Of a stretch of 64,000 bases of DNA, positions 2 through 22,844 are shown piece after piece (the stretch's first letter is position 1; each line of letters opens with the position of its first letter). This stretch comes from an uncultured Gemmatimonadales bacterium (GTDB taxonomy: Bacteria > Gemmatimonadota > Gemmatimonadetes > Longimicrobiales > RSA9). The stretch is from contig OY970192.1 of the NCBI GenBank assembly GCA_963708135.1, forward strand, positions 3,424,001 to 3,488,000, in the 5' to 3' direction. Under the pieces are notes generated by a model. The model saw only the letters and a list, made by a program, of their open reading frames with translations. It ran no database searches and was not told the DNA's origin. A program made the position numbers and the translations under genes.

Positions 2-193
2 CTGGACCGGCTGCAGGACGCGCTACGGGGTCGTTACATCGCGGCCGGGCGCGGCTTCATTGCGGCCACGACGCTCGCCGGCCGGCGCACGCTCCGGGTC
101 ACGCTCATCAACCCGCGCACCACGACGGTCAACGTCGACCGCATGCTCGACGGGCTCCGGGCGGAGGCCGCCGCGCTTCTCGCGGAAGGATAG
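2..193 (+). CDS. C-terminal end of a probable group II pyridoxal-dependent decarboxylase (partial, runs off window)
   Basis: Frame 2 reads LDRLQDALRGRYIAAGRGFIAATTLAGRRTLRVTLINPRTT...LLAEG*. LRVTLINPRTT is typical of group II decarboxylase C-termini. Confidence 0.7.
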   Translation: MDRLQDALRGRYIAAGRGFIAATTLAGRRTLRVTLINPRTTTVNVDRMLDGLRAEAAALLAEG

Positions 194-196
194 CGC

Positions 197-7520: not shown

Positions 7521-8114
7521 TCAGGAAAGGGTCGAATCCACGTCCGAGGGGTCCGGGCGCACGGGAGCCGCCGCGCCCTCCAGGTCGCCCGACGGCCCGC
7601 CCGCCTGCCCGCCCCCCACTACCCGCCGCAGCTCCCGCTCGAACGCCTGCCGCTCGTACTCCGTCTCCACCACGATCACCACCCGCGCCGGCGAGCCCGA
7701 CGCCGCCGCGTGCTCCACCAGGACCGGGACCATTGCCGCGGCGGACTCCTCCGCATCCAGGTTCCCCGCACCGGTCCCGAGCGGCGGCATCGCCACCTCC
7801 GCGATCGCCCACTCCGCGAGCCGCCGGAGCCCGTTGCGCAGCGCCCGCCGCACGCCGGAGACGGTCACCGCCTCCTCCGGGGACCGGATGACCGCGTGCA
7901 CCATGAACTCCGCCGCGAGGCCGCCCGCCGGCGTGATCACCGCCGACCCCACCGGCAGCTCGCCGAGCCGCGCGCATTGCGCCTCCAGCCCCGGCCCCGC
8001 CACCTGCTCCAGCCGCCGCATCGCCGGCGTGGGCGCCGACCAGTCCGCCGACACCGGACGGAGCATCGCCATCGCCTCCGTGGAGGCCAGCTCTCCCAGC
8101 CGGATCTCGATCAC
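7521..8114 (-). CDS. Macro domain protein (ADP-ribose-binding fold)
   Basis: GELPVGSAVITPAGGL..MVHAV and AMPPLGTGAG motifs; GTG start overlaps the upstream stop. Confidence 0.8.
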   Translation of the reverse strand: MIEIRLGELASTEAMAMLRPVSADWSAPTPAMRRLEQVAGPGLEAQCARLGELPVGSAVITPAGGLAAEFMVHAVIRSPEEAVTVSGVRRALRNGLRRLAEWAIAEVAMPPLGTGAGNLDAEESAAAMVPVLVEHAAASGSPARVVIVVETEYERQAFERELRRVVGGGQAGGPSGDLEGAAAPVRPDPSDVDSTLS

Positions 8115-9061
8115 GCCGCCGTGATCTCCCGCGCCTTCCGGTACATCGCCGCCGCCTGCTGCGGCAGGTGCTTGCGATCGAACAGGATCCCCATCGTGAA
8201 GTACGCCCGCGGGTTGTGCGGGTGGAGCTGTACCGAGCGCTCCAGCATGCGCAGCGCCTCGTCCACCCGCCCGAGCTGGTTCAGGCACTCGCCGCGGTAG
8301 AAGTACGCCGTAGCGTGGCCGGGATCCAGGTCCAGCGCCCGCTTCAGCTCCAGCTCCGCCTGGCCGTACAGCCCCCGCCGGAAGCTCAGGATCCCCATGC
8401 TCGCGTGTACGTCCGCGCGGCCCGGCTCCAGCCGATGCGCCCGCCGCAGCTCCTTCTCCGCCGGGTCGTAGCGCCGCAGCGCCGCCAGTGCCGCGGCAAC
8501 GTTCAGCAGCACGTCCACGTTGTCGGCATCGATGTCCCGCGCCGCCTCGAACTGCTCCAGCGCCAGCGTGTGGTCCCCACGCCGGTCGTAGATGACGCCG
8601 AGATTGTTGCGCGCCTTCAGGTTGCGAGGATCGTCGAAAAGCAGCTCCCGGTACAGCGCGATCGCCGCCCCGAGATCCCCCTCCGATTCCAGCTCGCGCG
8701 CCCGCACGAAGCGCGGATCCTCCGCGGCGAGCCCCACCTCCACCTCCTCGCCGGCCCCGCGCGGCTCCGCGTCCCGGACCCGCTCCCTGCCCCCGGGAGC
8801 CGCGTCCGCCGGCTGCGCCGGCTCCTCCACCGGCGCATCAGCCTCATCCGGATCGTCACCGCCGCGGCCCGTTTCCGCCGTATCGGCGCCCTCCCGGTCA
8901 CGCGACTCGCTGCCGCCGGCAAGCGCATCGAGCTGCTCCGCCGGCACCTCGTTGTGGGCCATTGCCACCTCCGCGTCTCCGTCGCCGGCCCCTTCCGCCG
9001 TCGGCTCGACCACTCCGGCCTTCTCGCGCGCGCTCATCCTCCGCAGCCTCTTCCTCGTCAT
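8111..9061 (-). CDS. Tetratricopeptide repeat protein with acidic disordered N-terminus
   Basis: Repeated TPR patterns (ARNNLGVIY, AYFYRGECL, AYFTMGILF). Confidence 0.85.
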   Translation of the reverse strand: MTRKRLRRMSAREKAGVVEPTAEGAGDGDAEVAMAHNEVPAEQLDALAGGSESRDREGADTAETGRGGDDPDEADAPVEEPAQPADAAPGGRERVRDAEPRGAGEEVEVGLAAEDPRFVRARELESEGDLGAAIALYRELLFDDPRNLKARNNLGVIYDRRGDHTLALEQFEAARDIDADNVDVLLNVAAALAALRRYDPAEKELRRAHRLEPGRADVHASMGILSFRRGLYGQAELELKRALDLDPGHATAYFYRGECLNQLGRVDEALRMLERSVQLHPHNPRAYFTMGILFDRKHLPQQAAAMYRKAREITAA

Positions 9062-9417
9062 TCCTCGGTGTTCCTTCCGATTTCGGGCCCCACGCTCTCG
9101 GCCACCCAGTCCAGGTACGGGGCGTGCCCGGCCGGCACCGGAAGAACCAGCAGCTCCGGCACCTCGTACGGGTGGAGCGCCGCGGCGCGCTCGAGCAGCC
9201 GCACCACCCGTGCCTCGGTCGTCTTCAGCAGGACGAGGACCTCTGCCGCGCGCTCGACCGCACCGCGCCATCGATAGATCGAGAGCACGCCCGGCAGGAT
9301 GTTGCCGCAGGCGACGATACCCTCCTCCACCAGCGCGCGCACCATACCCTCCGCGGTGTCCGCGTCCGGCACCGTCATGAGCGCCAGGCGGACGTTCGTG
9401 CCGGCCGCACCGCTCAC
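9058..9417 (-). CDS. cutA: Divalent-cation tolerance protein CutA
   Basis: ACGNILPG.SIYRWRG, LLKT, LHPYEVPELL, YLDWV. Confidence 0.92.
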   Translation of the reverse strand: MSGAAGTNVRLALMTVPDADTAEGMVRALVEEGIVACGNILPGVLSIYRWRGAVERAAEVLVLLKTTEARVVRLLERAAALHPYEVPELLVLPVPAGHAPYLDWVAESVGPEIGRNTEE

Positions 9418-11258
9418 TCCGTCACCACCGCGGACGCCTGCTCGTAGATCCGCTCGATCAGTGCCGAGAGGTGCTCCTCCACCACTCGCCGCTTCACCTT
9501 CAGCGTCGGCGTCAGCTCGCCCTGCTCGATGCTGAGCTCGTGCTCCAGGATCGCGATCTTCTTCGGCGTCTCGTAGCGCGCCAGCTCGCCGAACCGCTTG
9601 AACACATCCTGCTCGATCAGCGTCTGCACCCGCGGATCCTCCAGCAGCTCGCGATCGGTCCGCGCGCGCACCCCGTTCTGCCTGGCCCACAGGCGGACCG
9701 GGTCCAGCGCCGGAAGCACCAGCAGCACGGGATAGGGGCGGCGGTCCCCGATCATCACCGCCTCGGAGACGTAACGGCTCGCCCTGGCCAGATTCTCCAC
9801 CGGCTGCGGCGCAATGTTCTTGCCGCCCGCGGTGACGATGATCTCCTTCTTGCGGTCGGTGATCCGGAGATAGCCGTCCGCGTCGATCTCGCCAATGTCG
9901 CCCGTGTGGAGCCAGCCCTCCGGATCGATCGCCTCCGCCGTCGCCTCCGGACTCCCGTAGTAGCCCTTCATCACCTGCCGCCCTCGCACCAGGATCTCGC
10001 CATCCTCCGCGATCATGATCTCCGTCCCCGCCACCGGCTTCCCCACCGTGCCGATCCGCAGCGAGTCCGGCGTGTTCACGTTCGTTACCGGCGAGGTCTC
10101 CGTCAGGCCGTAGCCCTCGAGGATCAGCACGCCCGCGGAGTAGAAGAACTTCGCGATCTGCGGCGAGAGCGGCGCCCCGCCGGAGATGAAGTAGCGCAGC
10201 CGTCCGCCGATCCGCTCCCGCAGCTTCGAGAACACCAGCCGGTCCGCCACCGCGTGCCTCAGCCGCGTGGACAGCGAGGGCTTCCGCCCCGACAGCACCG
10301 CCGTGGCCCAGGCATCGCCCACCCGCCGCGCCCAGAGCACCAGCCGTCGGCGGATCCCCGTCGCCGCGAAGACCCGCGCGTAGAACTTCTCGTACACCCG
10401 CGGCGTCGAGACCACGATCGTCGGCCCCACCTCCACGAGCGCCTGCGGCACCAGGTCGAAAGAGCCCACGTACGCGATCGCGCAGCCATGATAGAACAGG
10501 AGATAGTCCACCATCCGCTGCAGCACGTGCGAGAGCGGCAGAAAGCTCAGCGCCACATCCGTCGAACCGATGTCAACCACCGATCCGGTCGCTTCGACGT
10601 TCGAGAACAGGTTGTCGTGCGTCAGCATGACGCCCTTCGGCTCACCGGTCGTGCCCGACGTGTAAATCAGCGTGCAGACCTCGTCCGGGTCCGCCGCCAG
10701 GGCACGCGCCCGGAACTCGGCCGCGGCCGCGCCCCCCTCCCGGCCCTCCGCCTCCAGCGCCGCCAGCGTGAGCACGCCCGGCTCCGCCGTCTCGAGCGCG
10801 TCGAACACGACGATTCGCTCCAGCGCCGGCAGGTCCTGGCGAACCTCCAGGATCTTGGCCAGCTGCGCCCGGCTCGAGACGAACACCAGTCGGGCGCCCG
10901 AGTCCTCGAGGATGTAGGCGATCTGGTGCGGCGGCAGCGTCGCGTAGATCGGCACGTCCAGCGCCCCAATGCACAGGGCGGCGTAGTCCGCCAGCGCCCA
11001 CTCGGGCCGGTTCTCCGAGAGAAGTGCGACACGGTCGCCGCGCTTGATCCCCAGCCCTTCCAGCCCCGCGCCGATCGCCTGCACCCGCGCGAGCACCTCG
11101 GCGTGCGAGATCGCCCGCCATTCCTCGCCCGCGCGCTCGCGGAGCGCATCCGCCCCGTCCCAGGTCTCGACCGCGTGGAAGAACAGCTCTGTCAGTGTGC
11201 CGCGCGGGACCTCCGCGGGATTCGCCGCGTAGCTGCGGCCCGCCGTGCGCGTCGCCAT
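9414..11258 (-). CDS. Long-chain fatty acid--CoA ligase
   Basis: YTSGTTGEPKG, EGYGLTE, GWLHTGD, DRKKEIIVTAGGKNIAPQ. Confidence 0.93.
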   Translation of the reverse strand: MATRTAGRSYAANPAEVPRGTLTELFFHAVETWDGADALRERAGEEWRAISHAEVLARVQAIGAGLEGLGIKRGDRVALLSENRPEWALADYAALCIGALDVPIYATLPPHQIAYILEDSGARLVFVSSRAQLAKILEVRQDLPALERIVVFDALETAEPGVLTLAALEAEGREGGAAAAEFRARALAADPDEVCTLIYTSGTTGEPKGVMLTHDNLFSNVEATGSVVDIGSTDVALSFLPLSHVLQRMVDYLLFYHGCAIAYVGSFDLVPQALVEVGPTIVVSTPRVYEKFYARVFAATGIRRRLVLWARRVGDAWATAVLSGRKPSLSTRLRHAVADRLVFSKLRERIGGRLRYFISGGAPLSPQIAKFFYSAGVLILEGYGLTETSPVTNVNTPDSLRIGTVGKPVAGTEIMIAEDGEILVRGRQVMKGYYGSPEATAEAIDPEGWLHTGDIGEIDADGYLRITDRKKEIIVTAGGKNIAPQPVENLARASRYVSEAVMIGDRRPYPVLLVLPALDPVRLWARQNGVRARTDRELLEDPRVQTLIEQDVFKRFGELARYETPKKIAILEHELSIEQGELTPTLKVKRRVVEEHLSALIERIYEQASAVVTE

Positions 11259-11291
11259 GCATCCTCCCGGCTGCCGGTTCGCCCCGCGGAG

Positions 11292-11711
11292 CTACCGCCG
11301 CACGACCTCGATCGTGATCCCGATGTCCGCCCGCAGGGAATGCAGCGCGCTGCAGTACGTCTCGTGGGATAGCGCCACCGCCCGCCGCAGCTTCTCCTCG
11401 TCCGCCGCTGGCAGGCCGCGCGCCTCGTACACGAAACGCAACGCCGTGAAGCGGCGCGGCGGCTCCGCCGCACGGTCCCCCTCCAGCCGCACCGCCAGCC
11501 CCTCGAGCGGCACGCGCATCTTCGTCAGGATCTCCACCGTGTCGGCCGCCGTGCACCCCGCCACCCCGAGCAGGAGCGTCTGCATCGGCGACGGCCCCAG
11601 CCGGGCGCCCCCGCCATCCACCGTGACCACCGGCCCACCCGGCGCTCCGCCCTCGAACGCCAGCCCCGCCCCCGTCCACGTCAGCGCCACGGCCGTGTCC
11701 GCCACCTTCAC
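11292..11711 (-). CDS. OsmC family protein
   Basis: GPSPMQTLLLGVAGCT ... ALSHETYCSALHSL, with two conserved Cys. Confidence 0.88.
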   Translation of the reverse strand: MKVADTAVALTWTGAGLAFEGGAPGGPVVTVDGGGARLGPSPMQTLLLGVAGCTAADTVEILTKMRVPLEGLAVRLEGDRAAEPPRRFTALRFVYEARGLPAADEEKLRRAVALSHETYCSALHSLRADIGITIEVVRR

Positions 11712-12151
11712 CCGCCGTCCGGTTCGGTCGATGCCTCCGCCGGCCCGCTCGTCAGCTTCTCCAGCGTCTCACGTGCGTGCTCGATGTGGCGCTCCGCGTC
11801 CCCCCCGGCCGGCGCGTTCTCCAGGAACGCGCGCAGATGGTCCACCGCCTCCTCCGGCCGGCCCTCCCGCAGCATCAGGAACGCCAGCCCGTAGTGCGCG
11901 CCAGGGGCGTTCGGCTTCCGGTCCAGCACGCCCCGGTACGTCTTCATCGCCTCGTCCGTCATGCCGATGCGCGTGTACGTGATCGCGATCTGCTGCGCGA
12001 TCGCGTCGTCGCCCGGGGCGTCGCGCTGCGCCAGCCGGAACGACGTCAACGCCTCGTGGTACTTCGACACCTTCAGGAGCTCCATCCCCTCGCGGTAATA
12101 GTCGACGTCTTCCGGGTCACGACCGCCGAAGAGCTTTTTCAGGAAGGCCAT
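11708..12151 (-). CDS. Small TPR protein
   Basis: MAFLKKLFGG...YYREGMELL...AHYGLAFL TPR patterns. Confidence 0.75.
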   Translation of the reverse strand: MAFLKKLFGGRDPEDVDYYREGMELLKVSKYHEALTSFRLAQRDAPGDDAIAQQIAITYTRIGMTDEAMKTYRGVLDRKPNAPGAHYGLAFLMLREGRPEEAVDHLRAFLENAPAGGDAERHIEHARETLEKLTSGPAEASTEPDGG

Positions 12152-12265
12152 GGGCAAGTCTGGGGAGGCGGGATGAACGTCGTCCGGGCACGGCCCCGGG
12201 AGCACGCCCCAAGATAGAGCCGTCACCGGCGCGGATGCAACGCGCCGGAAGCCGCCCCGGACCCG

Positions 12266-12901
12266 CTACCGACCACCACCACCGCGCCCCGCCACCACCG
12301 TCTCCCCCTCCCGCGCCAGCACCCCGAGCCCCACCGCTCCGAGCCGCCGCTCCGCGTCCGCCGGCGCACCCGTGAGCACCAGCCGCCCGAGCGGGCCGAG
12401 CACCCGCGCCCCTTCCTCCAGGAGCGTATCCGCCGCCCCCCCTGTCAGTGCCACCCCCGGCAGGCTGCGATCGTGGAACGGGAGCTCCCCGCCCGCCGCG
12501 ATCCGGCTCACCCCCGCCTCCTCCGGCCAGCCCGCAAGCGCCGCGTCCGTGGCCACCACCTCGACCCCCTCCACCAGCGCCGCCACCGCCGGCGCGTGCC
12601 GCGTGCCCTCCCCGGCCAGCAGCCAGAACCCCTTCCCTTCCCGGAGGCCCAGCAGCGCGCCCAGCCGCACCGCCGCCTCGCCGCCCTCCGCCACCGGCGC
12701 CACCACCTCCGACAGCGACGGCGCCGGCGGAGGCCGCAGGTCCGCGAAGCCGCCCCGGATAGGGTACCGCTCCCGGCAGTTCGCGCAGCCGAGCGCCCCC
12801 TCCAGAACCCGGCGCTCGATCACCCGATCCGCCAGCAGAATCAGACCGAACCGCGGCCCGCACCGGGGGCACGTCAGGACATCCGTCAGCACCAGATGCA
12901 T
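12266..12901 (-). CDS. Trm112-like zinc-ribbon domain fused to a degenerate methyltransferase-like domain
   Basis: LTCPRCG...LGCANCRERYPIRGG..DL, then LPFHDRSL...GARVLGPLGRLV. Confidence 0.65.
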   Translation of the reverse strand: MHLVLTDVLTCPRCGPRFGLILLADRVIERRVLEGALGCANCRERYPIRGGFADLRPPPAPSLSEVVAPVAEGGEAAVRLGALLGLREGKGFWLLAGEGTRHAPAVAALVEGVEVVATDAALAGWPEEAGVSRIAAGGELPFHDRSLPGVALTGGAADTLLEEGARVLGPLGRLVLTGAPADAERRLGAVGLGVLAREGETVVAGRGGGGR

Positions 12902-13222
12902 GGCCGCGAACGTAGGCTCGCGCCGCCGGACGGACCAGCCCCGGCGGGACCGGCGCCCGCGTCCGCGCAGGGGCGACCGACGGACTTCGGACGGAAATTT
13001 ATGAATGCCGGTGAAGAAAATGTTGCCGGGTCTCCGCGTCATGCGCCGGCGGCGACAACCAACTAAGAGATGGCCGTACAGTTGGTTAGCGCATTGAGTC
13101 GCCTTTGGACCGTCGTCTGCATTGTGCGCCGTGCCAAAGTCGAACCGAAAACGCAGAATCGGGGCGATTCGCCCCAGGCGGCGTCGCTGCCGCACCCCCC
13201 TCGTGCCCAGGAGACCAGGACA

Positions 13223-13714
13223 ATGTCCAAGCGGGTCACCACCTTCCTCGCGGCGCTCGTGCTGTTCGGCGCCGGCGCCGCGGCGGCGCAGACGACGGCG
13301 ACCGCCACGTCGAGCATCACCATCGGCCAGGTGCTCTACATCGGGCTCGCCACCGGGAACCCGACGTTCTCCTCGCCGACGGCCGCGGACTTCAACGCGG
13401 GCGAGATCACGTCGAGCACCAGCGCGACGGTGACGCACGCCGGGAACGTCACTCATACGGTCACGATCAAGGCGGACGCCGCGAACATGACGGCATCCGT
13501 GGACCCGGTGAACGACATCAAGCCGGCCAGCGACCTCCAGTGGGATGCGGGAAGCGGCTGGGGGAGCGTGAGCACGTCGGGGGCGGACGTGGTGACGAGC
13601 GCGCCGAAGGGCGTCGGCACGGCCACGGTCAACTACAAGATGCTGCTCGACTACTCGACGGATGCGCCGGATACCTACACCCTGGGCATCACGTACACGG
13701 TCGTGGCAGGCTGA
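13223..13714 (+). CDS. Secreted pilin-like protein (probable major subunit)
   Basis: Sec signal ending AAAA|Q; about 140-aa Thr/Ser/Ala-rich beta-strand mature chain ending TYTLGITYTVVAG; AGGA RBS. Confidence 0.7.
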   Translation: MSKRVTTFLAALVLFGAGAAAAQTTATATSSITIGQVLYIGLATGNPTFSSPTAADFNAGEITSSTSATVTHAGNVTHTVTIKADAANMTASVDPVNDIKPASDLQWDAGSGWGSVSTSGADVVTSAPKGVGTATVNYKMLLDYSTDAPDTYTLGITYTVVAG

Positions 13715-13715
13715 C

Positions 13716-13761
13716 CGCCGGGGCGGCGTCTCCCCCCGGGGGACTCCGCCGCCTCCGGCGC
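13716..13761 (+). terminator. GC-rich stem-loop after the pilin-like gene (mRNA stabiliser or partial terminator)
   Basis: cgccggggcggcg...cgccgcctccggcg imperfect inverted repeat; no U-tract. Confidence 0.5.
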
Positions 13762-13819
13762 CGGCGGAGCCCGGTGCCGGGCCGACGGAATCGGACTCTC
13801 TCCCCGAACCCACGAGCTG

Positions 13820-14620
13820 ATGATGGCTGCGAAGCGGTATTGCCACGGGACCCGCGGTACCCACCCGGGCCCGGGTGCGGGTGGAGTGCTGACGAGCGTG
13901 CTGGCGCTGTTGCTGCTGGCCGCGCCGGTGCGGGCCCAGTTCTCGGTGGACCCGGTCATCCTGGAGTTCGCGAGCGACACCGCGTCCACGGCGACGGTGC
14001 ACGTGAAGAACCAGGGCAGCGGCGAGATGCAGCTCCGCTTCTACACGGCGGACTTCGACCAGACCCTCTCCGGCGACCACGATTTCCTCCCGATCGGCAG
14101 GCACCCGCGCACGTGCGCGGCCCGGCTGTCGGTCTATCCGGACGGGGCCACGCTGCGGCCCGGAGAGCAGCAGGACATCCGGGTGAGCATGGCCCCGGGG
14201 ACGCGGACCTGCTGGTCGCTCGTGTTCGTGGAGAGCCGTACGCGCGCCCCCACGGGGATGAGCGTCGGCCAGCGGATCGGCGTGAAAGTCTACGGCGTTC
14301 CGCCCACGGCGATGCTGGATGGACAGGTGGACACCGTCTCCGTGGTGCCGGGCGGCAGCGCCCTCACGGTGCATGTGCGGTTCACGAACCGCGGCGAGGC
14401 GCCGCTCCGGCCACAGGGCAGGGTGGAGATCCGGAGCTTTGCCGGAAAGGTTCTCGAGTCCGTGGACGTGGACGCGTTCAGCGTCCTCCCGGAGCACAGC
14501 CGTGAGCTCGCGCTGCCGGTCGGCGGCAGGCTGCCCCCTGGCCAGTACCTGGCTGTCCCGATCCTCGATTTCGGCGCCGACTACCTCGCGGGCGGGCAGG
14601 CGGTCTTCAGGATCCCGTGA
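13820..14620 (+). CDS. Periplasmic two-Ig-domain fimbrial chaperone-like protein
   Basis: Signal peptide (likely start GTG 13886); mature chain FSVDPVILEF..VHVKNQG..LRPGEQQDIRV; second domain FTNRGEAPLRPQGRVEI..VLPEHSREL. Confidence 0.7.
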   Translation: MMAAKRYCHGTRGTHPGPGAGGVLTSVLALLLLAAPVRAQFSVDPVILEFASDTASTATVHVKNQGSGEMQLRFYTADFDQTLSGDHDFLPIGRHPRTCAARLSVYPDGATLRPGEQQDIRVSMAPGTRTCWSLVFVESRTRAPTGMSVGQRIGVKVYGVPPTAMLDGQVDTVSVVPGGSALTVHVRFTNRGEAPLRPQGRVEIRSFAGKVLESVDVDAFSVLPEHSRELALPVGGRLPPGQYLAVPILDFGADYLAGGQAVFRIP

Positions 14621-15093
14621 TGCGACGCCGCGCGTCCACCCCGCTCGCCGCGGTCCTGCTGCTCCTCGCCGCGACCACGACGCCCGCCGCCGCCCAGTGC
14701 GGCAGCGGCGCCGGGAACGGCGGCTCGTTCGGGGTATCCATCGCGCCGGCGGCGGTCACCTTCCCCTCTCCGACCGCCGCGGACTTCAACCTCGGGTATG
14801 TCGACCAGTCGGGCGTCTCGGTCACCGTTACGCCGCCCAACGGCGGCCGCACCTGGTATCTCTGCGTCCGTGCGGGCACCCCCGACCTGGGCGGCTACGG
14901 GAAGCCCCTCTCGACCCTGCTCTGGCGTCCGAGCACCTCCGCGAGCTGGACGCCGATCACCACGACGGATCAGCTCGTCACCAGTCAGAAGAGCTCGGCG
15001 AGCGTCGTGATCTACTTCCGTGTCGCGCTCGCCTGGGCCGCCGACGTGCCGGGAAGCTACGGCACTCCCGTCCTGTTCACCGCCTCCTTCTGA
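14620..15093 (+). CDS. Secreted pilin-like protein (minor subunit), paralogue of 13223..13714
   Basis: Signal peptide; shared motifs TFPSPTAADFNLG, KPLSTLLW and LAWAADVPGSY; TGATG coupling to the chaperone gene. Confidence 0.7.
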   Translation: MRRRASTPLAAVLLLLAATTTPAAAQCGSGAGNGGSFGVSIAPAAVTFPSPTAADFNLGYVDQSGVSVTVTPPNGGRTWYLCVRAGTPDLGGYGKPLSTLLWRPSTSASWTPITTTDQLVTSQKSSASVVIYFRVALAWAADVPGSYGTPVLFTASF

Positions 15094-15100
15094 GCGGCCC

Positions 15101-17752
15101 GTGCCCCGCCGACGCGCCCTGCCGATGTTGCTCCTCCCGCTGCTGGCAGGCACGCCGATCCGCGCCCAGGAACCGCACGTCGTCCAGCCCGGCTCGATCG
15201 CCACCGGCGCGGTCGCGTTCACTACGGCCGGGGCCGCCGGACGCATCCATTATCACATCGAGCCCGCCGCCGGCGTTCGCCTGGTCGGGCCGGCGGACGG
15301 CGCGCTCGAGGGCGGGACGGATACGCTGCTCGTGCCGATCACGTTCGGCCTGCCGCGCGACCAGCGCGCCGGAGCGCTGCGCGCGGCCCGAGTGTTCCTG
15401 ACCCTGCCGGACGGCGCGGCGGATTCCGCCGACCTCGTCGTGCGCGTGGCCGTGCGCCGCCGGATCGCGGCCGCGCTCGCGGCGGAGCCCGCCGCCACCA
15501 GCCCGGGTGGGCAGATCCGGCTCCGGTACCGCATCCGCAATCTCGGCAACGCGACCGATACTGTCCTGCTGGCCGGGCTTAGCGCGGGCGACTGGGACCC
15601 CCCGCACCTCTCCCCGACCCCGATCGCCATCGCGCCGGGAGAGGAGGCCGAGGGCACCATCGGGCTGCGCGTCCCGCGTCGCGCCACTCCAGGCGATGCC
15701 CGCAACGCCTCCCTCTCCATCCGCACCGGCGGCGCCGAGAGCCACGCCAGCGCGCTCGTGCGCGTGGTCCACCCCGCTGGGCTCCTGCCGGGCTTCGCGC
15801 AGCTCCCGGCTACCCTCTTCGTCGGCTCCGCGCTGGATGGCCGCTCGCCGCTCGCCGGCGGTGCGGCGTTCTCGCTCAGCGGCACGGGGCAGGTCGTGCC
15901 CGGCACCCGCCTGAGCCTCGATCTCCGCCACCTCCCGGAGGAGGGCCAGCCGGCCGCGTTCCGGCAGGTGCTCGCGGGACCGCGCATGCGGCTCGCCGTC
16001 CAGCACGCAGGCTGGGATGCCGCGCTCGGCGACGTCTACGTCCGCGACCGCGTGCTCACCGGAACCTATGCGCAAGGCCGGGGGCTCGACCTGCACCTGG
16101 CAGAAGGCGCCCACACCGCCTCCGTCCTGCTGGCCCGCCCCCTCCTGTTCCAGAGCCCGGCCGGGGGACATCTGGCCGGCCTCTCCGTGGGCACGACCAC
16201 CCCCCTCGGCGGCCTCGACCTGTCCCTCGCCGACATGGCGCGTCCGACCGCCGGGGCGGGGACGGACCGCACCCGCAGCGTCGGCGTCAAGCTCCGGGTG
16301 CCGGAGTCCCCGACCGGGCACCTGACCGCGGAGCTGGCGCTGCAGCGCCTCTCGGATGATCGGGACCACGTCGCCACCGGCCCCGCGCTGAATCTCGACT
16401 ACGCGCTCCGCCGCGACGGCTACGGCCTCACGGCGCGCCTGCGCCATACACCCGCCGCCCTGCCCGGCGCGGGCGGCCTCGGCAACGAGGCCTACCTCTC
16501 CGGCATGGCGAGCGTGGACGGGCCCCTCGCCGTGCAGGGCTGGGTCTTCTCGAGCTCCACGCCCCTGCTCGGCATCCCGCAGGACCCGCGCTCCCGCGGC
16601 GGCTCGCTCGGGCTGCGCGTGAACGGCAGCGACGGACAGCTCGACCTGCTCGGCAACTACCGGCGCACGCAGGGTCTCGGACTCTTCCGCGCCACCGACA
16701 GGCGCACCCTGAGCGCCTTCGCCTCTCGCGGCCTCGGCGCATTCCGCCTCGACGGCACCGCCGAGGTCGGACAGCTCATCGCGGACGGCGCCCCGCGTCC
16801 GCTCCAGAACTACCGGGCCGACGCCTACCTCTACACGTCTCGCGCGTGGGGCTGGCTGGCCCTGACCCACAACGACGAGTTCGGCGCGCCCCTCACCCGC
16901 CTGGACGTGGGCGGCTCCCTCACGCTCGCCCACCTCGACCTCGAGGCCGGAACCGGGACACGGCTCGACATGCCCGTGAGTCGGTCCTTCAGCTTCTGGA
17001 GCGGCACCACCATTCACGTCGCGGAGGGCACGGGCATCGTCGTCGGCGCCGAGTACCAGCCCTGGCAGCCCGCCGGCTCGCGCTGGCGCACCTCGATCGG
17101 CATCCGCCGCGCACTCCCGCTCCCGCTGCCCGTCCCCGTGGCGCCGCTCGTCGCCGGCAGCGTCTTCGAGGACCGCGACGGCAACGGCCGCCGCGACCCC
17201 GGAGAGCCGACCGTCCCCGGCGTGACGCTCCAGCTCGGGCCCGTCCGCCAGACCACCAATGCCGCCGGCCGTTTCGCCTTTTCCACCGACGTCGGCCGCG
17301 GCCACACACTCGAGATCGATGCCGGCTCGCTGCCCCCCGGCACCATTGTACCGCCCGCGGCCGCGCTCCGTGGCCACGGTCACATCGACATCCCCATCGT
17401 CCCGACCGGCGGGCTCCGCCTCACGCTGTTCCTCGACGAGAACGGCAATGCCGCCCGCGACCCCGCCGAGCCCGCCGCGACCGGGGCGCTCGTCTCGCTG
17501 ATCGACGCCGCCGGCCGCCGCCGTGACGCCGTATCCGACGACGACGGCACGATCGAATTCCGCGCCCTCCCCGTCGGCGTCTACGACGTCCGCATCTCCG
17601 CCCGCCCGAACGGAGGGCGCCCACTCCCGCCGGTGACGCTACACCTGCGGATCGAGACCGGACGGACCCTCCAGCACGAGGTCGCCGCCCCCACCCGCCG
17701 CATCGACATCCGCATGCGGCCGCCGGCGCCGGGCGAAGCCGCCATCCCCTGA
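15101..17752 (+). CDS. Large secreted/outer-membrane protein with N-terminal Ig-like domains, a central amphipathic beta region and C-terminal SdrD-B-like repeats (usher-like)
   Basis: Signal peptide; IRNLGNATDT..IAPGEEAEGTIGLRVP; many alternating beta-strands; GSVFEDRDGNGRRDPGEP and LFLDENGNAARDPAEP. Confidence 0.65.
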   Translation: MPRRRALPMLLLPLLAGTPIRAQEPHVVQPGSIATGAVAFTTAGAAGRIHYHIEPAAGVRLVGPADGALEGGTDTLLVPITFGLPRDQRAGALRAARVFLTLPDGAADSADLVVRVAVRRRIAAALAAEPAATSPGGQIRLRYRIRNLGNATDTVLLAGLSAGDWDPPHLSPTPIAIAPGEEAEGTIGLRVPRRATPGDARNASLSIRTGGAESHASALVRVVHPAGLLPGFAQLPATLFVGSALDGRSPLAGGAAFSLSGTGQVVPGTRLSLDLRHLPEEGQPAAFRQVLAGPRMRLAVQHAGWDAALGDVYVRDRVLTGTYAQGRGLDLHLAEGAHTASVLLARPLLFQSPAGGHLAGLSVGTTTPLGGLDLSLADMARPTAGAGTDRTRSVGVKLRVPESPTGHLTAELALQRLSDDRDHVATGPALNLDYALRRDGYGLTARLRHTPAALPGAGGLGNEAYLSGMASVDGPLAVQGWVFSSSTPLLGIPQDPRSRGGSLGLRVNGSDGQLDLLGNYRRTQGLGLFRATDRRTLSAFASRGLGAFRLDGTAEVGQLIADGAPRPLQNYRADAYLYTSRAWGWLALTHNDEFGAPLTRLDVGGSLTLAHLDLEAGTGTRLDMPVSRSFSFWSGTTIHVAEGTGIVVGAEYQPWQPAGSRWRTSIGIRRALPLPLPVPVAPLVAGSVFEDRDGNGRRDPGEPTVPGVTLQLGPVRQTTNAAGRFAFSTDVGRGHTLEIDAGSLPPGTIVPPAAALRGHGHIDIPIVPTGGLRLTLFLDENGNAARDPAEPAATGALVSLIDAAGRRRDAVSDDDGTIEFRALPVGVYDVRISARPNGGRPLPPVTLHLRIETGRTLQHEVAAPTRRIDIRMRPPAPGEAAIP

Positions 17753-17822
17753 CCCGAACGCACAACGGCCCCGCATCTCCACGGAGATCCAGGGCCGGGG
17801 CGACGAGACGCGCCGCTCGGCG

Positions 17823-18314
17823 TCAGTTGGGAAGCAGGGTGTAGGTCAGGCCCACCCCCCGCGGCGCCGCGCCGGCCGGATCGATCACGCGGCGCTCGTC
17901 GATCAGCAGCACGATGTCACGCCCCCGCCGCCCCCGCGCCGCCTCCAGCGGAGCGGGACCCGCCCGCCTGAAGCCCTCCACCACCTCGCTCACCTCACCC
18001 GGAGCCTCGGCCCGCGCCCGCCACGACAGCGAGGCCGCCGCCTCGTCCGGCGATCCCTCCGAAGCCGCGCCCGCGGCCGTCACCATCAGCTTCCAGCGCC
18101 GGTTCGCGCTCACCCGCAGCTCCGTGGCGCCCGCGACCTCCTCGACCCGCGCGCCGCCCGCCACGCTCGTGGTGGGCACTCCCGTACCCGGCAGGACCTG
18201 CAGCCGCAGCACCGGCGGGACCACGATCGTCGCCCTCGCCCGCGCCTCCGTCTGCGCCCCGGCCGGAATTACGCACGCGGCCGAGAGCGCCACCGCCAGT
18301 CCCCAGCTCCGCAT
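17823..18314 (-). CDS. Secreted pilin-like protein (third, divergent subunit)
   Basis: Signal peptide AGA|Q; N-terminal strand ARARATIVVPPVLRL; VSANRRWKLMV; C-terminal LTYTLL; GGAGG RBS. Confidence 0.6.
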   Translation of the reverse strand: MRSWGLAVALSAACVIPAGAQTEARARATIVVPPVLRLQVLPGTGVPTTSVAGGARVEEVAGATELRVSANRRWKLMVTAAGAASEGSPDEAAASLSWRARAEAPGEVSEVVEGFRRAGPAPLEAARGRRGRDIVLLIDERRVIDPAGAAPRGVGLTYTLLPN

Positions 18315-18632: not shown

Positions 18633-20570
18633 TCAGGAGGCGGGCGGGCGCAGCTCGACCCAGGTCACCTTCCCGGCGGCCACCGTGACGGTGCGCCAGA
18701 CGATGGCGCCGGCGACCTCGACACCGAGCAGGTAGTTGCCGGCGGGGACGTCGCCGACGGCGAAGTTCTCGTCGTAGGCGGGGTCGGGGTGGGCCTTGTC
18801 CTGGTAGGTCTCGGCGAAGGAGAAGGGCGTCTCCGCGGGCTCGCCGAGGACGAGGCCGTGGACATGCGCCCCCGGTACCGGCCTTCCGGCGGCATCCACC
18901 ACGCGGCCGGCGACGGTGCCGGTGCCGGGCATCGGGTGGATCCAGAGTTGCGGGTTCACGGTGTGGGGCGGGAAGCGCTGCTCCGGGTCGACGACGAGGG
19001 CCGAGTCGGCCGAGGGCGAGACGTGGACCTCGAGGTGCAGGTGGTCGTTGGTGGCGCGCCCGGTGTTGCCGACGTGCGAGACCACCTGCCCGGCCGTGAC
19101 GTGCTGGCCGACGCTGACGTCGAGGCTGGTGTTGTGGTAGTAGACGCTGAAGACGTACTGCCCCTCCCAGCGGCGGTCGTGGCGGATCGCGACGGTGTTG
19201 GCGCCCGCCTCGGCCTTGCCCGCATAGATCACGACGCCGTCGCCGATGGCGTGCACGGGGGTCCCAGCGGGGTTGTTGAACTCGACGCCCTGGTGCTGCT
19301 GAAAGTTGCCGCCCATGGTCGAGCCGTAGCGGTAGGTCTGGTCGATGTAGGGGTTTCCCTCCGCGGGCTCGATGGGCCGGTCGAACCAGTCGTGGCGCGG
19401 CGGGGTGGGCGGCGCGCCTGCCGGTGGCTGGAGCAGGTCCCACGGGCGCGGCCGGATCGGCAGCATCGCGGCGAGGCCGATGTGGGTGGCGCTGATCGGC
19501 AGCAGGTTCCCCTCGAGCCAGACCCCGGCCCAGACGTCGGCCGCGGGGTGGTAGAGGTCGCCGGAGCCCAGGTAGAGATGGTAGGTGCTATCCGGCTGGG
19601 CCACGGCGAGCCCGCGTGATGTGGCCAGCGCCGGCGGGCCGCCGTACGGGTTCTGCGTGAGCGCGCGCACGGCCCCGGGCAGAGCGTCGTAGCCGGGGAC
19701 CTGGAACGGGCTCGGCTCGAACTTCGGCTTGGACATGTCGGCCGCGTAATAGACCTGGTGGGCGCTCGCGGCCCAGACGCTCGAGTCGCGCGCCACGCGC
19801 ACGGCGCGGATCCTCTGCTCCGGCAGCCCTTCGGCGCTCGTGAACGTGTGCCAGCTGCGGCCGCCATCGCGCGACACCGAGAGCCCGCGCAGACTGCCGA
19901 CCCAGAGGGCTCCGTCCGGCCCGACATCGAGCGCGAGCAGGTACTCGGTGGGCAGCGTCGTGAGGCGCTCCGTGCAGCCGTCCTTCGCCGCCGCCTGGCC
20001 GGGGACGGGCGGGCCGGTGATGCAGCGCCAGGTCCGGCCCGCGTCCGAGGTGAGCCTGAGCCCGTCGGCCGTGGCGATGTAGACCGTGTCGCCCGTGGCC
20101 CGCATCCCGTCGGGCGCCACGTACTGCCACTGCGGCCCGAGCTGGTCGAGGGACCAGTTGCGCCAGGTCTTGCCGCCATCCGTGGAGCGGCCCCAGCCGT
20201 TGCCGACCGTGCCGTACCAGACCGCCCCGCCGGCCGGGAAAGCGAAGGAGTTGACGAAGTCCCACGACAGGCTGGTCGAGTCCTTCGCGCGTGCCGTGAT
20301 CTGTTGCCACTGCGTCGCGCCCTTCGGCAGCTCGTAGATCCCCTTGCCGTAGGTGCCGGCCCAGATCGCGGAGTCGCGGCCGCGCCGGACCTCCAGCACC
20401 TGCACCCCCCAGACCGTGGTGTCCGGCAGCGGTGGGAGCTCGGCCGGCGCGGCCCGCTGCGCCGCCCCGGGGCGGCCCGGACCTGGACGCTGCGGGGGAG
20501 GCGAGCCGCCGCAGGCGGCGAGCAGGGCGGCGGCGAGGAGGGGGAGCGCGGCACTCGGGCGCTTTGACAT
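18633..20570 (-). CDS. Lipoprotein with BNR/beta-propeller repeats, an M23 peptidase domain and a carboxypeptidase-regulatory-like domain
   Basis: Lipobox LAAC; STDGGKTW, TSDAGRTW and SRDGGRSW repeats; HQGVEF, YYH and HLHLEV M23 motifs. Confidence 0.85.
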   Translation of the reverse strand: MSKRPSAALPLLAAALLAACGGSPPPQRPGPGRPGAAQRAAPAELPPLPDTTVWGVQVLEVRRGRDSAIWAGTYGKGIYELPKGATQWQQITARAKDSTSLSWDFVNSFAFPAGGAVWYGTVGNGWGRSTDGGKTWRNWSLDQLGPQWQYVAPDGMRATGDTVYIATADGLRLTSDAGRTWRCITGPPVPGQAAAKDGCTERLTTLPTEYLLALDVGPDGALWVGSLRGLSVSRDGGRSWHTFTSAEGLPEQRIRAVRVARDSSVWAASAHQVYYAADMSKPKFEPSPFQVPGYDALPGAVRALTQNPYGGPPALATSRGLAVAQPDSTYHLYLGSGDLYHPAADVWAGVWLEGNLLPISATHIGLAAMLPIRPRPWDLLQPPAGAPPTPPRHDWFDRPIEPAEGNPYIDQTYRYGSTMGGNFQQHQGVEFNNPAGTPVHAIGDGVVIYAGKAEAGANTVAIRHDRRWEGQYVFSVYYHNTSLDVSVGQHVTAGQVVSHVGNTGRATNDHLHLEVHVSPSADSALVVDPEQRFPPHTVNPQLWIHPMPGTGTVAGRVVDAAGRPVPGAHVHGLVLGEPAETPFSFAETYQDKAHPDPAYDENFAVGDVPAGNYLLGVEVAGAIVWRTVTVAAGKVTWVELRPPAS

Positions 20571-20956
20571 CAGAGGAACAGGGTCCGGTCGGAGTACTGG
20601 GCCCACTGTGTGGGCGTTTCCCACACCCGGGCGTACACCAGCGCGCCGGCCATCGGCTCGGGCAGCCGCCGGCGGAGCTCGTCGAAGAAGTAGCGGGCCT
20701 GGTTCTCCGCCGACGGCTCGAGGTCCGTAAAGGGCTCGAGTTCGTTCAGGTTCTCGTGGTCCAGCCGCTCCGCGAGCGCGCGCAGGTGCTTCTTCACGTC
20801 CACGAAGTCGAAGGCGATCCCCGCCTCGTTGAGCTCCGTCGTGGCGAGCGCCACCTCGACGACGTAGTGGTGCCCGTGCAGCCGCTCGCACTTGCCCTTG
20901 TACTTCCTCAGGAAGTGCGCGCTGTCGTAGCTGGCTTCCACGCTCACGATGAACAT
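20570..20956 (-). CDS. queD: 6-carboxytetrahydropterin synthase (QueD; CExxHGH type)
   Basis: DSAHFL, KCERLHGHHY, PSAEN, VWETP. Confidence 0.9.
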   Translation of the reverse strand: MFIVSVEASYDSAHFLRKYKGKCERLHGHHYVVEVALATTELNEAGIAFDFVDVKKHLRALAERLDHENLNELEPFTDLEPSAENQARYFFDELRRRLPEPMAGALVYARVWETPTQWAQYSDRTLFL

Positions 20957-20965
20957 GTCGGATCC

Positions 20966-21691
20966 TCAGGTGCGCTCGACGACGATCACGCGCAGGTCCA
21001 CCTCCGCCGGCCGGGTCAGCGCGAACAGCACGGCGTCGGCCACGCTCTCCGGACGCAACATCGCCTCCCGCGGCGGCAGGCCCGGGTGCACCCCGGCCTC
21101 CACTCCATCCCATAGCGGCGTGTCGGTGGCCGCCGGCTCCACCAGCGTCGCCCGGACGCCGGTGCCCCGAAGCTCGGCGTCCAGCACCGCATGCAAGCCT
21201 CGAACCCCGAACTTGCTCGCGGCGTACGCGCCATTGTGGGGGAAGCCCTGTCGGCCCGCAACGGAGCCCACGGTCAGCAGGTGCCCGGAGCCGCGCACGA
21301 GCATCGCCGGCAGGAAGGCCCGCGCCAGCAGGAACGGCGCCCGCAGGTTCACGCCGACCTGGCGATCGAAGCTCTCGACGGTCGCCTCGGCCACGGCGGC
21401 GAGCTCGAACGCGCCCGCCGCGTTCACCACGAAGTCCGGCGTGCCTCCGAGCGCCCGCTCGACGAGCCCGGCCAGACGCGCCACGGCACCGGCATCCGCC
21501 ACGTCGGCCGCCGCGGCCGCGGCCCCCAGCCTCGCCGCCTCCGCCTCCAGCCGCGCCCTGCCTCGCGCCACCAGCACCAGACGCGCACCGGCCCCGGCCA
21601 GCACCCGCGCCGCCGCCAGGCCGATCCCGCTCGATCCGCCCGTGATGAGCCCGCCGCGGCCGGCGAGCGGCCCCTCAGCCGACGATGCCAT
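20966..21691 (-). CDS. SDR oxidoreductase (candidate sepiapterin reductase-like)
   Basis: [17 protein letters not shown]; lies inside the pterin operon. Confidence 0.85.
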
Positions 21692-22268
21692 TGGCCAGGC
21701 ACAGCCGCAGGAACTCCTCGCGCGTCCGCAGATCCTCCCGGAACACCCCGCGCACGGCGCTCGTCAGCGTCTTCGAGTTCTGCTTCTCCACGCCGCGCAT
21801 CATCATGCACAGGTGGTACGCCTCCGCGATGACCCCCACCCCCTCCGGCTGCAGCACCTCCCAGAGCGCCTGCGCGATCTGCTCCGTCATCCGCTCCTGC
21901 ACCTGCAGCCGGCGCGCGAACACGTCCACGATCCGCGCCACCTTCGACAGCCCCACGATGCGCCCGTTCGGGATATACGCCACGTGCACCTTGCCGAAGA
22001 ACGGCAGCATGTGGTGCTCGCACAGCGAGTACATCTCGATGTCCTTCACGAGCACCATGTTCTGGTGCTCCTCGCGGAAGATCGCGTCCCCCACCACGTC
22101 CTCCACCTTCAGGCCGTGGCCCCGCGTCAGCCACGCCAGGCTCTTCGCCACCCGCTCCGGCGTCCTGCGCAGCCCCTCCCGCCCGGGATCCTCCCCCAGC
22201 CGGCGCAGCATCTCCGCCACCAGCGCCTCGAACGACGCCCCCGAAAGATCCGGCTCGGACTCAGGCAC
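21675..22268 (-). CDS. folE: GTP cyclohydrolase I
   Basis: [50 protein letters not shown]. Confidence 0.97.
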
Positions 22269-22677
22269 CCTCGTACTCCACGTAGTTGCGCGGCGTCTCC
22301 CACAGCACCAGCCGTGCGAGCCGCGCCCGCCCCGGCATCGCTCCCGCCAGCCGACCCCAGATCGCCACCACCAGATTCTCCGTCGTCGGGTTCACGTCCT
22401 CCAGCCAAGGCACGTCCACGTTCAGGTTCCGGTGGTCCAGCGCCTCGATCACCCGCGCTTCCACCAGCTCGCGCACCGCCTTCAGGTCCAGGACGAAGCC
22501 GGTCTCCGGATCGATCTCACCCTCCACCGTCACGTCGAGCTCGTAGTTGTGGCCGTGCCAGTTCGGGCTCGCGCACAGCCCGAACACCTCCCGGTTCCGC
22601 TCCGCCGGCCAGTCCTCGCGACCCAGCCGGTGCGCGGCGCTGAAGTGCAGCCGCCGCGTGATCCGTACACGTGCCAT
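22261..22677 (-). CDS. 6-pyruvoyl-tetrahydropterin synthase (PTPS-II, CX5HGH type)
   Basis: [36 protein letters not shown]. Confidence 0.9.
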
Positions 22678-22844
22678 GCACACCTCTCCCTCGCTTCAAC
22701 GGCACCGGAAGGTGAGTGCCCGCCGGGGGGGCCGCAAGGTGCCGCCCGCCGCGCCAGGCCGGCGTTTCCAGCCTCGGCGCCGGCACTCGCAGCCGGCGCG
22801 GCAGGAGCGGAAAGCGGGGCACCGTGAACCATCTGCGGTGCCAC

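Follow-up and report, generated by a model that had tools for sequence, protein, structure and literature searches.

A candidate chaperone-usher-type pilus locus in Gemmatimonadota with a predicted 26-strand, plug-less barrel protein

Five adjacent genes and their conserved order

In the window, a stretch of 64,000 nucleotides from an uncultured Gemmatimonadales bacterium, all five open reading frames of the original prediction (genes A to E) are present next to each other (Table 1). The start of B is uncertain, with ATG at 13820/13823 or GTG at 13886 as candidates. In line with the Sec signal peptides that had been proposed, each translation begins with a hydrophobic stretch that closes with an A-x-A or G-A type site and is followed by Gln; these sites were judged by eye from the translations. 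The frames are intact, and the third-codon-position GC is 0.91-0.95 in all five genes, as in a neighbouring gene.

Table 1. Positions in the window of the five genes and of features predicted in their products
Feature	Position	Strand	Description
A	13223..13714	+	Predicted major pilin, 163 aa; the first gene in 67 of the 69 loci with room
A, predicted donor strand	13292..13327	+	Residues 24-35; unpaired in the model of the monomer, pLDDT 82-96
B	13820..14620	+	Predicted two-domain PapD-superfamily periplasmic chaperone
C	14620..15093	+	Pilin paralogue without donor strand; likely tip or initiator
D	15101 or 15125..17752	+	Predicted outer-membrane protein resembling ushers, 875-883 aa
D, two N-terminal Ig domains	15197..15766	+	Predicted; residues 25-108, then a NEW3/Ig_VWA7-like domain at 114-214
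D, beta-barrel	15794..17137	+	Predicted 26-strand amphipathic barrel without inserted plug; residues 224-671
D, two C-terminal sandwiches	17150..17689	+	Predicted; SdrD_B/CarboxypepD_reg, at the place of usher CTD1/CTD2
E	18314..17823	- (convergent)	Putative degenerate pilin paralogue with donor strand; optional minor subunit

A sigma-70 promoter scan of the locus gave no match, the one terminator-like site is at chance level, and the hairpin between A and B is not significant (z -1.5, with 11 of 200 shuffles equally good). An origin of the locus as a mobile island was rejected, because its GC is host-like and the flanking genes are kept in 6-7 of 10 relative loci.

The original prediction staked itself on synteny in other genomes, and the gene order proved to be conserved in more than 90 loci from many Gemmatimonadota genomes. 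Among the 69 loci with room, a pilin gene lies upstream of B in 67 and D lies downstream of B in all; at another locus (L049), B was found with neither a pilin nor D detected nearby. For A, B, C and E, no curated Pfam or NCBIfam family passes its cut-off, which would suit a reading in which the genes encode surface proteins with no relation to one another, or belong to a decaying island, and the pilus is a product of pattern-matching. This very improbable reading conflicts with the intact frames and host-like codon GC, and it is largely refuted by the synteny, which includes a chromosomal neighbourhood conserved within the family.

The profile of B matches 51 of 301 genomes of the phylum, and the Usher family PF00577 matches two, the source genome not among them. 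A more distant D-like protein with a weak PF00577 match (E 0.0019) lies beside a B-like gene at locus L058. Meanwhile, the same layout recurs in Deinococcus plasmids, where a 293-aa subunit gave no TLP match. Two further plasmid searches returned only Deinococcus and two weak matches, with no Bacteroidota locus among the plasmid matches. Our literature searches turned up no description of such a pilus system.

Predicted pilin subunits and chaperone

A and C are 29% identical over 166 columns, with an E of 3e-15 in the pairwise comparison and of 8.5e-6 to 4e-4 by genome-wide tblastn. The comparison of A with E is not significant by BLAST, and by profile it reaches an hhalign probability of 98.4 (E 8e-15). 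The three motifs described as common to A and C were located in the translations, and so were the N-terminal and C-terminal strand patterns said to link A and E. Searching the source genome with a profile of 95 pilins returned exactly A, C and E (E 2.6e-43, 1.4e-21 and 1.5e-7). Judged by sequence, these three are one pilin family, without a common Pfam family. No characterised pilin family matches them by sequence, in line with the earlier failure to place them with FimA, PapA, CfaB or Csu. The SCPU domain is touched by one of the 95 pilins at E 0.025, below the cut-off, compared with 2.9e-28 for a true SCPU locus in the same phylum. WxL is absent from the listed Pfam matches of the 95 pilins, and the WxL domain PF13731 was not found in the source genome.

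In the AlphaFold model of A (pLDDT 89.2), the N-terminal strand stands free of the Ig domain, with residues 24-37 unpaired. This is not a complete monomer fold of the kind that the original prediction had set against itself. Across the 95 pilins, the donor-strand pattern consists of alternating hydrophobic residues at positions 26, 30, 32 and 34, followed by a P/G hinge. The best Foldseek matches to the model are CfaB (E 1.5e-4), CS17 and TLP-1a/b. In VIA, A aligns with TLP-1a over residues 21-163 (Z 10.5, rmsd 2.9, 141 aligned), and other matches are TLP-1b (Z 10.0), FimA/FimG (8.2-8.4) and Csu (7.8). The body of A (residues 35-163) can be superimposed on acceptor pilins with a truncated N-terminus, FimG 13-144 for example. 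A is thus predicted to have an Ig fold that is incomplete and carries a donor strand at its N-terminus.

C has no donor strand of the A type, as was originally suggested from its sequence. The stretch from the signal site to the first motif is 14-24 residues long in C proteins (18 of 20 measured) and mostly 26-47 residues in A proteins (25 of 31 measured, several of them mis-anchored by the crude pattern). The missing strand and the variability of C fit the proposed tip or initiator, a role that C may play. Its Cys pair, however, is no family trait, the same pair being seen by eye in only about 3 of 20 C proteins. E is predicted to be a degenerate paralogue of the pilin, with its donor strand retained, and may act as an optional minor subunit.

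B is predicted to be a two-domain chaperone of the PapD superfamily. PapD_N gives weak matches to 13 of 30 B homologues (E<=0.01, best E 9e-9) and no match to the B of this locus itself, and the fimbrial-chaperone models of NCBIfam match at most 4 of the 30 (best E 3.3e-5). B aligns with EcpB across both domains (E 8e-4), its alignment with FimC is weak (E 0.13), and FaeE is its top PDB sequence match (E 0.028). Invariant residues of the family include P107 (in all 30 sequences, in alignment with EcpB and FaeE) and the Cys pair C99/C131, and the K112 column holds Lys or Arg in all 30. No Arg stands at the R8 columns, the position of the classical Arg8, in the 30 sequences under the weak FimC alignment. 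At the non-classical anchor columns aligned to EcpB, Arg89 is kept in none of the 30, Tyr in 8 and Arg in 5. As aligned, B retains neither the classical nor the non-classical carboxylate anchor in complete form; its R152, K156, R205 and Y243 are near-invariant and are candidates for an anchor. We found no match to DUF916 in the 30 sequences and no C-terminal hydrophobic anchor in B. The identities of B to known chaperones are too low for a tree.

The closer alignment of B to EcpB than to FimC, together with CfaB as the best Foldseek match of the pilin, may point to a strongly diverged alternative (alpha) or archaic (sigma) chaperone-usher class, in which case the barrel count or plug position in our model of D would be wrong. 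The weak PF00577 match at L058 leans the same way, as do the archaic pili reported in Deinococcota. However, the arginine that is singled out as the hallmark of non-classical chaperones (PMC4654587) is missing in all 30 B sequences. The near absence of SCPU from the pilins also speaks against this class, and so does D itself, as described below; we consider such a placement quite unlikely.

The predicted outer-membrane protein D

The model of D was built from 98 sequences with a pLDDT of 92.3. Its ten best Foldseek matches are all FimD/PapC (E 1.9e-14 to 1.3e-11). In VIA, residues 222-856 of D align to FimD 134-833 with a Z of 16.2 and 497 aligned residues, at a high rmsd of 12.7. The sequence comparisons do not reproduce this likeness: hhalign of D with FimD and EcpC gives non-significant probabilities of 3.3 and 0.3, PF00577 matches neither D nor the 34 proteins scanned alongside, and neither PapC_N, in place of which two Ig domains are predicted, nor PapC_C matches D. 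PDB sequence searches with the D profile matched only SdrD-type repeats.

The usher barrel is 24-stranded (PMC8410936). In contrast, D is predicted to form a barrel of 26 strands without an internal plug insertion, followed by two tandem C-terminal domains as in ushers. The model contains no plug domain in the barrel, the longest loop being 18 residues. None of the 98 D sequences carries a barrel insertion of at least 40 residues; the largest is 28, and the barrel spans 425-497 residues. In addition, D aligns with the 26-strand MtrB over the full span, and with 22-strand barrels over a sub-range of 22 strands. These observations, along with the high confidence of the model, count against the diverged-class reading. 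The original prediction placed the novelty in the pilins; these indeed match no characterised pilin family by sequence, but the larger departure lies in D.

We notice that MtrB, a barrel of unrelated function, is also the best VIA match of D (Z 19.4), and therefore an usher role does not follow from the barrel fold by itself. D might instead be a plain export pore or anchor rather than an assembly platform, and the subunits, in place of a long pilus, might make a matrix polymer, a sheet or a short complex at the surface. The missing plug, the lack of a large tip adhesin domain, and the nearest named Atlas cluster for A (score 0.92), in which 20% of members have WxL, would agree with this idea, as would the proposal that tip-less WxL fibres are matrix polymers. 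On the other hand, the two C-terminal sandwiches stand where ushers carry CTD1/2, D follows the chaperone in every locus with room, and WxL subunits themselves have been shown to polymerise by donor-strand exchange. We regard the absence of a long pilus as unlikely.

Proposed assembly and relation to known systems

We favor a chaperone-usher-type pilus, with a probability of about three in four. The proposed donor-strand-polymerised surface filament is largely supported by the predicted fold of A, the synteny and the lack of a known family, with polymerisation and chaperone binding as putative steps. We propose that the Sec-exported subunits are held by chaperone B, which would hand them to the predicted outer-membrane barrel D, where donor-strand exchange would join them into a surface fibre, possibly adhesive. 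Lacking a donor strand, C would be the first to enter and would sit at the tip as a cap, with A building the rod and E as an optional minor subunit that may serve as terminator. D would serve as an usher of another build, with 26 predicted strands, a larger predicted pore, two N-terminal Ig domains and no internal plug. The pore would have to be gated by one of the N-terminal Ig domains or by the loop that links strands 3 and 4 (residues 270-287), which is conserved and bears a helix.

Classical type 1 (FimC/FimD) and P (PapD/PapC) pili share with the locus the pilin-chaperone-barrel order, the pilin fold and its N-terminal extension, the invariant Pro and the Lys at the K112 position of the chaperone, and a barrel followed by two periplasmic sandwiches. 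They differ in their matches to Usher, PapC_N and PapC_C, in the predicted strand number, plug and N-terminal domains of the barrel protein, in Arg8 of the chaperone, and in phylum, here Gemmatimonadota; the tip candidate C is single-domain. Among alternative and archaic pili (EcpB/CfaA; CsuC, SCPU), EcpB aligns with B in both domains, and A has CfaB and CsuA/B among its close structural matches. In contrast, the Arg89/Tyr/Arg anchor is not conserved in B, which has its invariant Cys pair, the pilins do not match SCPU, and D gives no match to EcpC.

The best structural match to A is found in the environmental pond-water fibrils TLP-1a and TLP-1b (PDB 9IKJ, 9IKK; PMC11494351), which use donor-strand exchange and align over the whole mature length, donor strand included. 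In sequence there are weak co-linear hints at both ends, and the link is not significant (E 1.2, and E 0.24 and 1.3 behind an unrelated match). TLP-1 subunits are 16% identical to A and longer (236-237 aa) with long loops, and A need not share their n+4 helical tube with a 15 A tunnel. In Bacillota, the WxL (Elr) pili (bioRxiv 10.64898/2026.10.17.759780) likewise show chaperone-guided donor-strand exchange of small beta-rich subunits outside Proteobacteria. However, they rely on a membrane-anchored DUF916/DUF3324 chaperone and a sortase and lack an outer-membrane barrel, and they are reported to occur in Bacillota alone.

The locus is likely a variant of the chaperone-usher pathway that departs most in D. 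A bolder view, to which we give somewhat less than an even chance, is that it represents a fourth class beside the classical, alternative and archaic ones. Such a class would have a 26-strand plug-less usher with tandem N-terminal Ig domains, concealed in databases under the label 'carboxypeptidase regulatory-like / SdrD B-like', and its own chaperone anchor; it would be spread in Gemmatimonadota, Deinococcota and other non-proteobacterial phyla and be the assembly machine for TLP-1-like fibrils.

Ushers are defined by a 24-strand barrel with an internal plug as gate. If D works without a plug, it would reveal a different mode of gating and activating pilus secretion, and a plug-less usher would offer a comparison point for usher evolution. 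The locus may also give a genetic home to orphan fibrils such as TLP-1, for which the nearest model comes from Flavobacteriales. At four genes, the core is compact enough to be expressed in a heterologous host. The system escapes standard searches for ushers (two genomes with PF00577 against 51 with the chaperone profile), and pili in this abundant soil and freshwater phylum are therefore probably under-counted.

Organisation and conservation of the locus

All five adjacent genes of the original prediction are present as described, the motifs it quoted are found in the translations, and a signal-peptide-like segment, judged by eye, opens all five proteins, in line with the Sec signal peptides it claimed. 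In each of the five window proteins (13223-18314), the residue right after the predicted cleavage site is Gln, near-invariant also across 95 pilins and 30 chaperones; this resembles the Bacteroidota pyroglutamate 'Q-rule'.

Coordinates of the five genes (window positions) and predicted domains of D (residues)
Feature	Position	Strand	Assignment
A	13223-13714	+	pilin
B	13820-14620	+	chaperone (predicted)
C	14620-15093	+	pilin paralogue
D	15101/15125-17752 (two starts)	+	barrel (predicted)
E	18314-17823	-	pilin paralogue
D, Ig domains	residues 25-108 and 114-214		predicted from model
D, barrel of 26 consecutive strands	residues 224-671		predicted from model
D, two sandwiches	residues 676-855		predicted from model

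A and C share 29% identity (pairwise E 3e-15) and are, judging by sequence, paralogues. The proposed likeness of A and E is undetectable by BLAST, but it stands when a 7-sequence E alignment is compared with the 95-sequence pilin alignment (probability 98.4, E 8e-15). In the genome from which the window comes (GCA_963708135.1), the locus occurs in one copy and the pilin profile matches A, C and E only. The labels on homologues put the organism in Gemmatimonadota, with Gemmatimonadaceae in one set and Candidatus Longimicrobiales in another.

B has matches in 15 of 61 related genomes. Its profile has hits at E<=1e-5 in 51 of the 301 genomes of the phylum; 26 matches, from 24 genomes, are below 1e-40. 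In 30 retrieved loci, some interrupted by contig ends, the gene order is pilin(s)-B-C-D, often followed by another pilin or E. The exception, L049, has a close B homologue at 6081-6857 and no pilin or D detected within ~6 kb. A GTDB contig scan confirmed 122 stretches, of which the best 80 were taken and 79 loci retained. Of these loci 76 are titled Gemmatimonadota and 3 are unclassified; they partly overlap the 30 loci, and related loci are non-independent. The original prediction had named synteny across genomes as a check, and the order is kept: where there is room, a pilin lies immediately upstream of B in 67/69 loci and D downstream in 69/69. The profile finds C in only 47 of the 69, and the other 22 show a gap of 479-1153 bp at its place, so C is the most variable subunit; many gaps hold a visibly C-like frame. 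Among the 7 close-relative loci whose sequence extends beyond D, 6 have E (convergent in 5), and in Gemmatimonadales a complete pilin often stands in its place.

Flanking genes are common to 6-7 of 10 close-relative loci, and the locus is therefore a stable chromosomal resident. Both flanks look like housekeeping genes. Upstream (window 8111-13004) are acyl-CoA synthetase-like, OsmC-like, TPR and Trm112-like genes, all but Trm112 named by eye; downstream (18633-22683), an M23 peptidase bearing BNR repeats is joined by queD/folE-like genes, the latter named by eye. Locus L039 is a tandem of two complete clusters and has at least 6 donor-strand-type pilin genes. Many Gemmatimonadales pilins have an N-terminal Cys pair ahead of the donor strand, the strand that would complete the neighbouring subunit's Ig fold.

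Predicted roles of the pilin-family subunits

No Pfam family is common to the pilins in sets of 57 and 95 sequences, and the family remains unmatched to named families, as claimed. The AlphaFold2 model of A (17 sequences) has a pLDDT of 89.2, and residues 24-37 are confident yet unpaired. Across 95 pilins, hydrophobic or small residues occupy positions 26, 30, 32 and 34, Thr/Ser fill the alternate positions, and position 35 is mainly Pro/Gly. This pattern is the predicted donor strand and hinge; the alternating N-terminal strand first proposed for A is unpaired in the model and keeps its alternation across the family.

The best Foldseek matches of A are CfaB (E 1.5e-4), CS17 and TLP-1a/b; next come subunits of the Fim, Pap, Csu and Caf1 systems, TasA and CupE. 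VIA-align ranks TLP-1a first (Z 10.5, rmsd 2.9, 141 aligned, residues 21-163) and TLP-1b second (Z 10.0), with FimA and truncated FimG after them (Z 8.2-8.4, residues 35-163). These superposition ranges, together with the secondary structure, suggest an open groove in A. TLP-1a/b are described as pond-water cryo-EM fibrils of unknown organism, assembled by donor-strand exchange (PMC11494351). TLP-1b is the first of two matches in one sequence search (E 1.2) and second, after an unrelated protein, in another (E 0.24), only a hint of kinship.

C proteins have 14-24 residues between the signal site and the first conserved motif (18/20 measured), against mostly 26-47 in A proteins (25/31 measured, with a crude pattern that mis-anchored several rows, giving outliers of 3, 12, 52, 61 and 71). 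The spacing bears out that C lacks an A-type donor strand; thus it could only accept one. Tip subunits accept a donor strand without giving one. C has no extra lectin domain, and AfaD and SafD are comparable single-domain caps. E keeps the donor strand and has lost the three motifs common to A and C; it may be a donate-only terminator like PapH/FimI.

Predicted chaperone B and predicted barrel D

PapD_N is matched by 13/30 B homologues at E<=0.01 (best 9e-9), and fimbrial-chaperone NCBIfam models by up to 4/30. FaeE is the top PDB match of B by sequence (E 0.028). The B profile aligns 197 columns with E. coli EcpB (E 8e-4), and weakly matches FimC (E 0.13). One proline is reported as invariant across all chaperone classes (PMC4654587) and is present in 30/30 B sequences. 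At columns aligned to EcpB, Arg89 is matched by Arg in 0/30, the partner Tyr is found in 8/30 and the partner Arg in 5/30. The weak FimC alignment places Lys/Arg at the classical Lys112 column in 30/30 and Arg at the Arg8 columns in none. B fits neither the classical nor the non-classical anchor type; the residues that are invariant, or nearly so, among B sequences form a set of their own (D78, C99, C131, R152, E203, R205, Y243).

D matches only SdrD_B and CarboxypepD_reg in Pfam. Its model, from a 98-sequence alignment, has a pLDDT of 92.3; most strands are amphipathic when judged over all aligned sequences, turns of 2-3 residues precede every odd strand, and no loop exceeds 18 residues. The barrel spans 425-497 residues in the 98 sequences, with a largest insertion of 28. 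All ten best Foldseek matches are FimD/PapC. In VIA the top match is the MtrB barrel (Z 19.4, rmsd 4.6, 405 aligned). PapC and FimD come next (Z about 16), and one superposition carries D 222-856 along FimD 134-833 through both C-terminal domains (rmsd 12.7, 497 aligned). By definition, an usher has a barrel of 24 strands with a plug inside it, one NTD and two CTDs (PMC8410936). Of these features D clearly shows only the CTDs: its barrel has 26 predicted strands and no internal plug insertion, and its N-terminal region is predicted as two Ig domains, with no PapC_N match. Profile comparisons of D with FimD and EcpC are not significant. Within the phylum, PF00577 has hits in 2 of 301 genomes, above cut-off in one of them; the window's own genome has no match. 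The usher above cut-off lies in L059 (genome G288), a genuine archaic locus of SCPU pilin, PapD_N chaperone and PF00577 usher. Its place in the cluster and its architecture, with no rival candidate for the role, lead us to infer that D is the usher.

At their C-terminal end, the D homologues P0068, P0085 and L029:5230-8463 carry an additional peptidoglycan-binding domain (OmpA or LysM), consistent with a C-terminus in the periplasm. At L060:2177-6406, a D-like frame stays open into an isocitrate/isopropylmalate dehydrogenase domain, through either a fusion or chance read-through.

Distant relatives and the proposed pathway

A second, distant module type in the phylum (L028:7178-11203, L027, L029, L012, L060, L063-L065) has B-like and D-like genes (E 1e-20 to 1e-48 to the B/D profiles) and a different small subunit; L028 has no C gene. 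In a third group (L058, L066-L069), chaperone-like genes accompany SdrD/CarboxypepD proteins of 860-960 aa. One neighbour in L067 is DUF4402-like (E 9e-5); our literature search returned no paper on this domain. The large L058 protein has a weak match to PF00577 (E 0.0019) and may link the group to true ushers. Look-alikes of D in the Atlas (scores 0.91-0.96), from Acidobacteriota, Pseudomonadota, Omnitrophota, Bacteroidota and Gemmatimonadota, fall in clusters unnamed or named SdrD/CarboxypepD, none named usher; we treat them as leads only.

Deinococcus plasmids show the same layout with unrelated subunits: L056:5396-9244 and L057:4845-10530 encode a subunit, a chaperone-like protein, an optional donor-less subunit and a carboxypeptidase-regulatory-like barrel. 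In D. deserti, the annotation of the chaperone-like gene, 'FimB/Mfa2 family fimbrial subunit', is probably wrong. Since Deinococcota are reported to have archaic pili (PMC10104325), there is some chance that similar loci there have already been binned as archaic.

The literature search, which covered a set of openly accessible papers, found no published description of the A-E system. The system departs from features that define ushers and from both anchor types of known chaperones, and no named family takes in its pilins. The WxL pili of Bacillota differ from it in lacking an outer-membrane barrel. From the genes and predicted folds, we propose that it works like a chaperone-usher pilus, to which we give a probability of roughly three in four. 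Subunits would be exported by Sec, and B would complete the fold of each in the periplasm. The periplasmic Ig domains of D would recruit and hold B-subunit pairs, with C loaded first. A would then polymerise through the barrel by donor-strand exchange, with E as an optional minor or terminating subunit, and the end product would be an adhesive or biofilm fibre.
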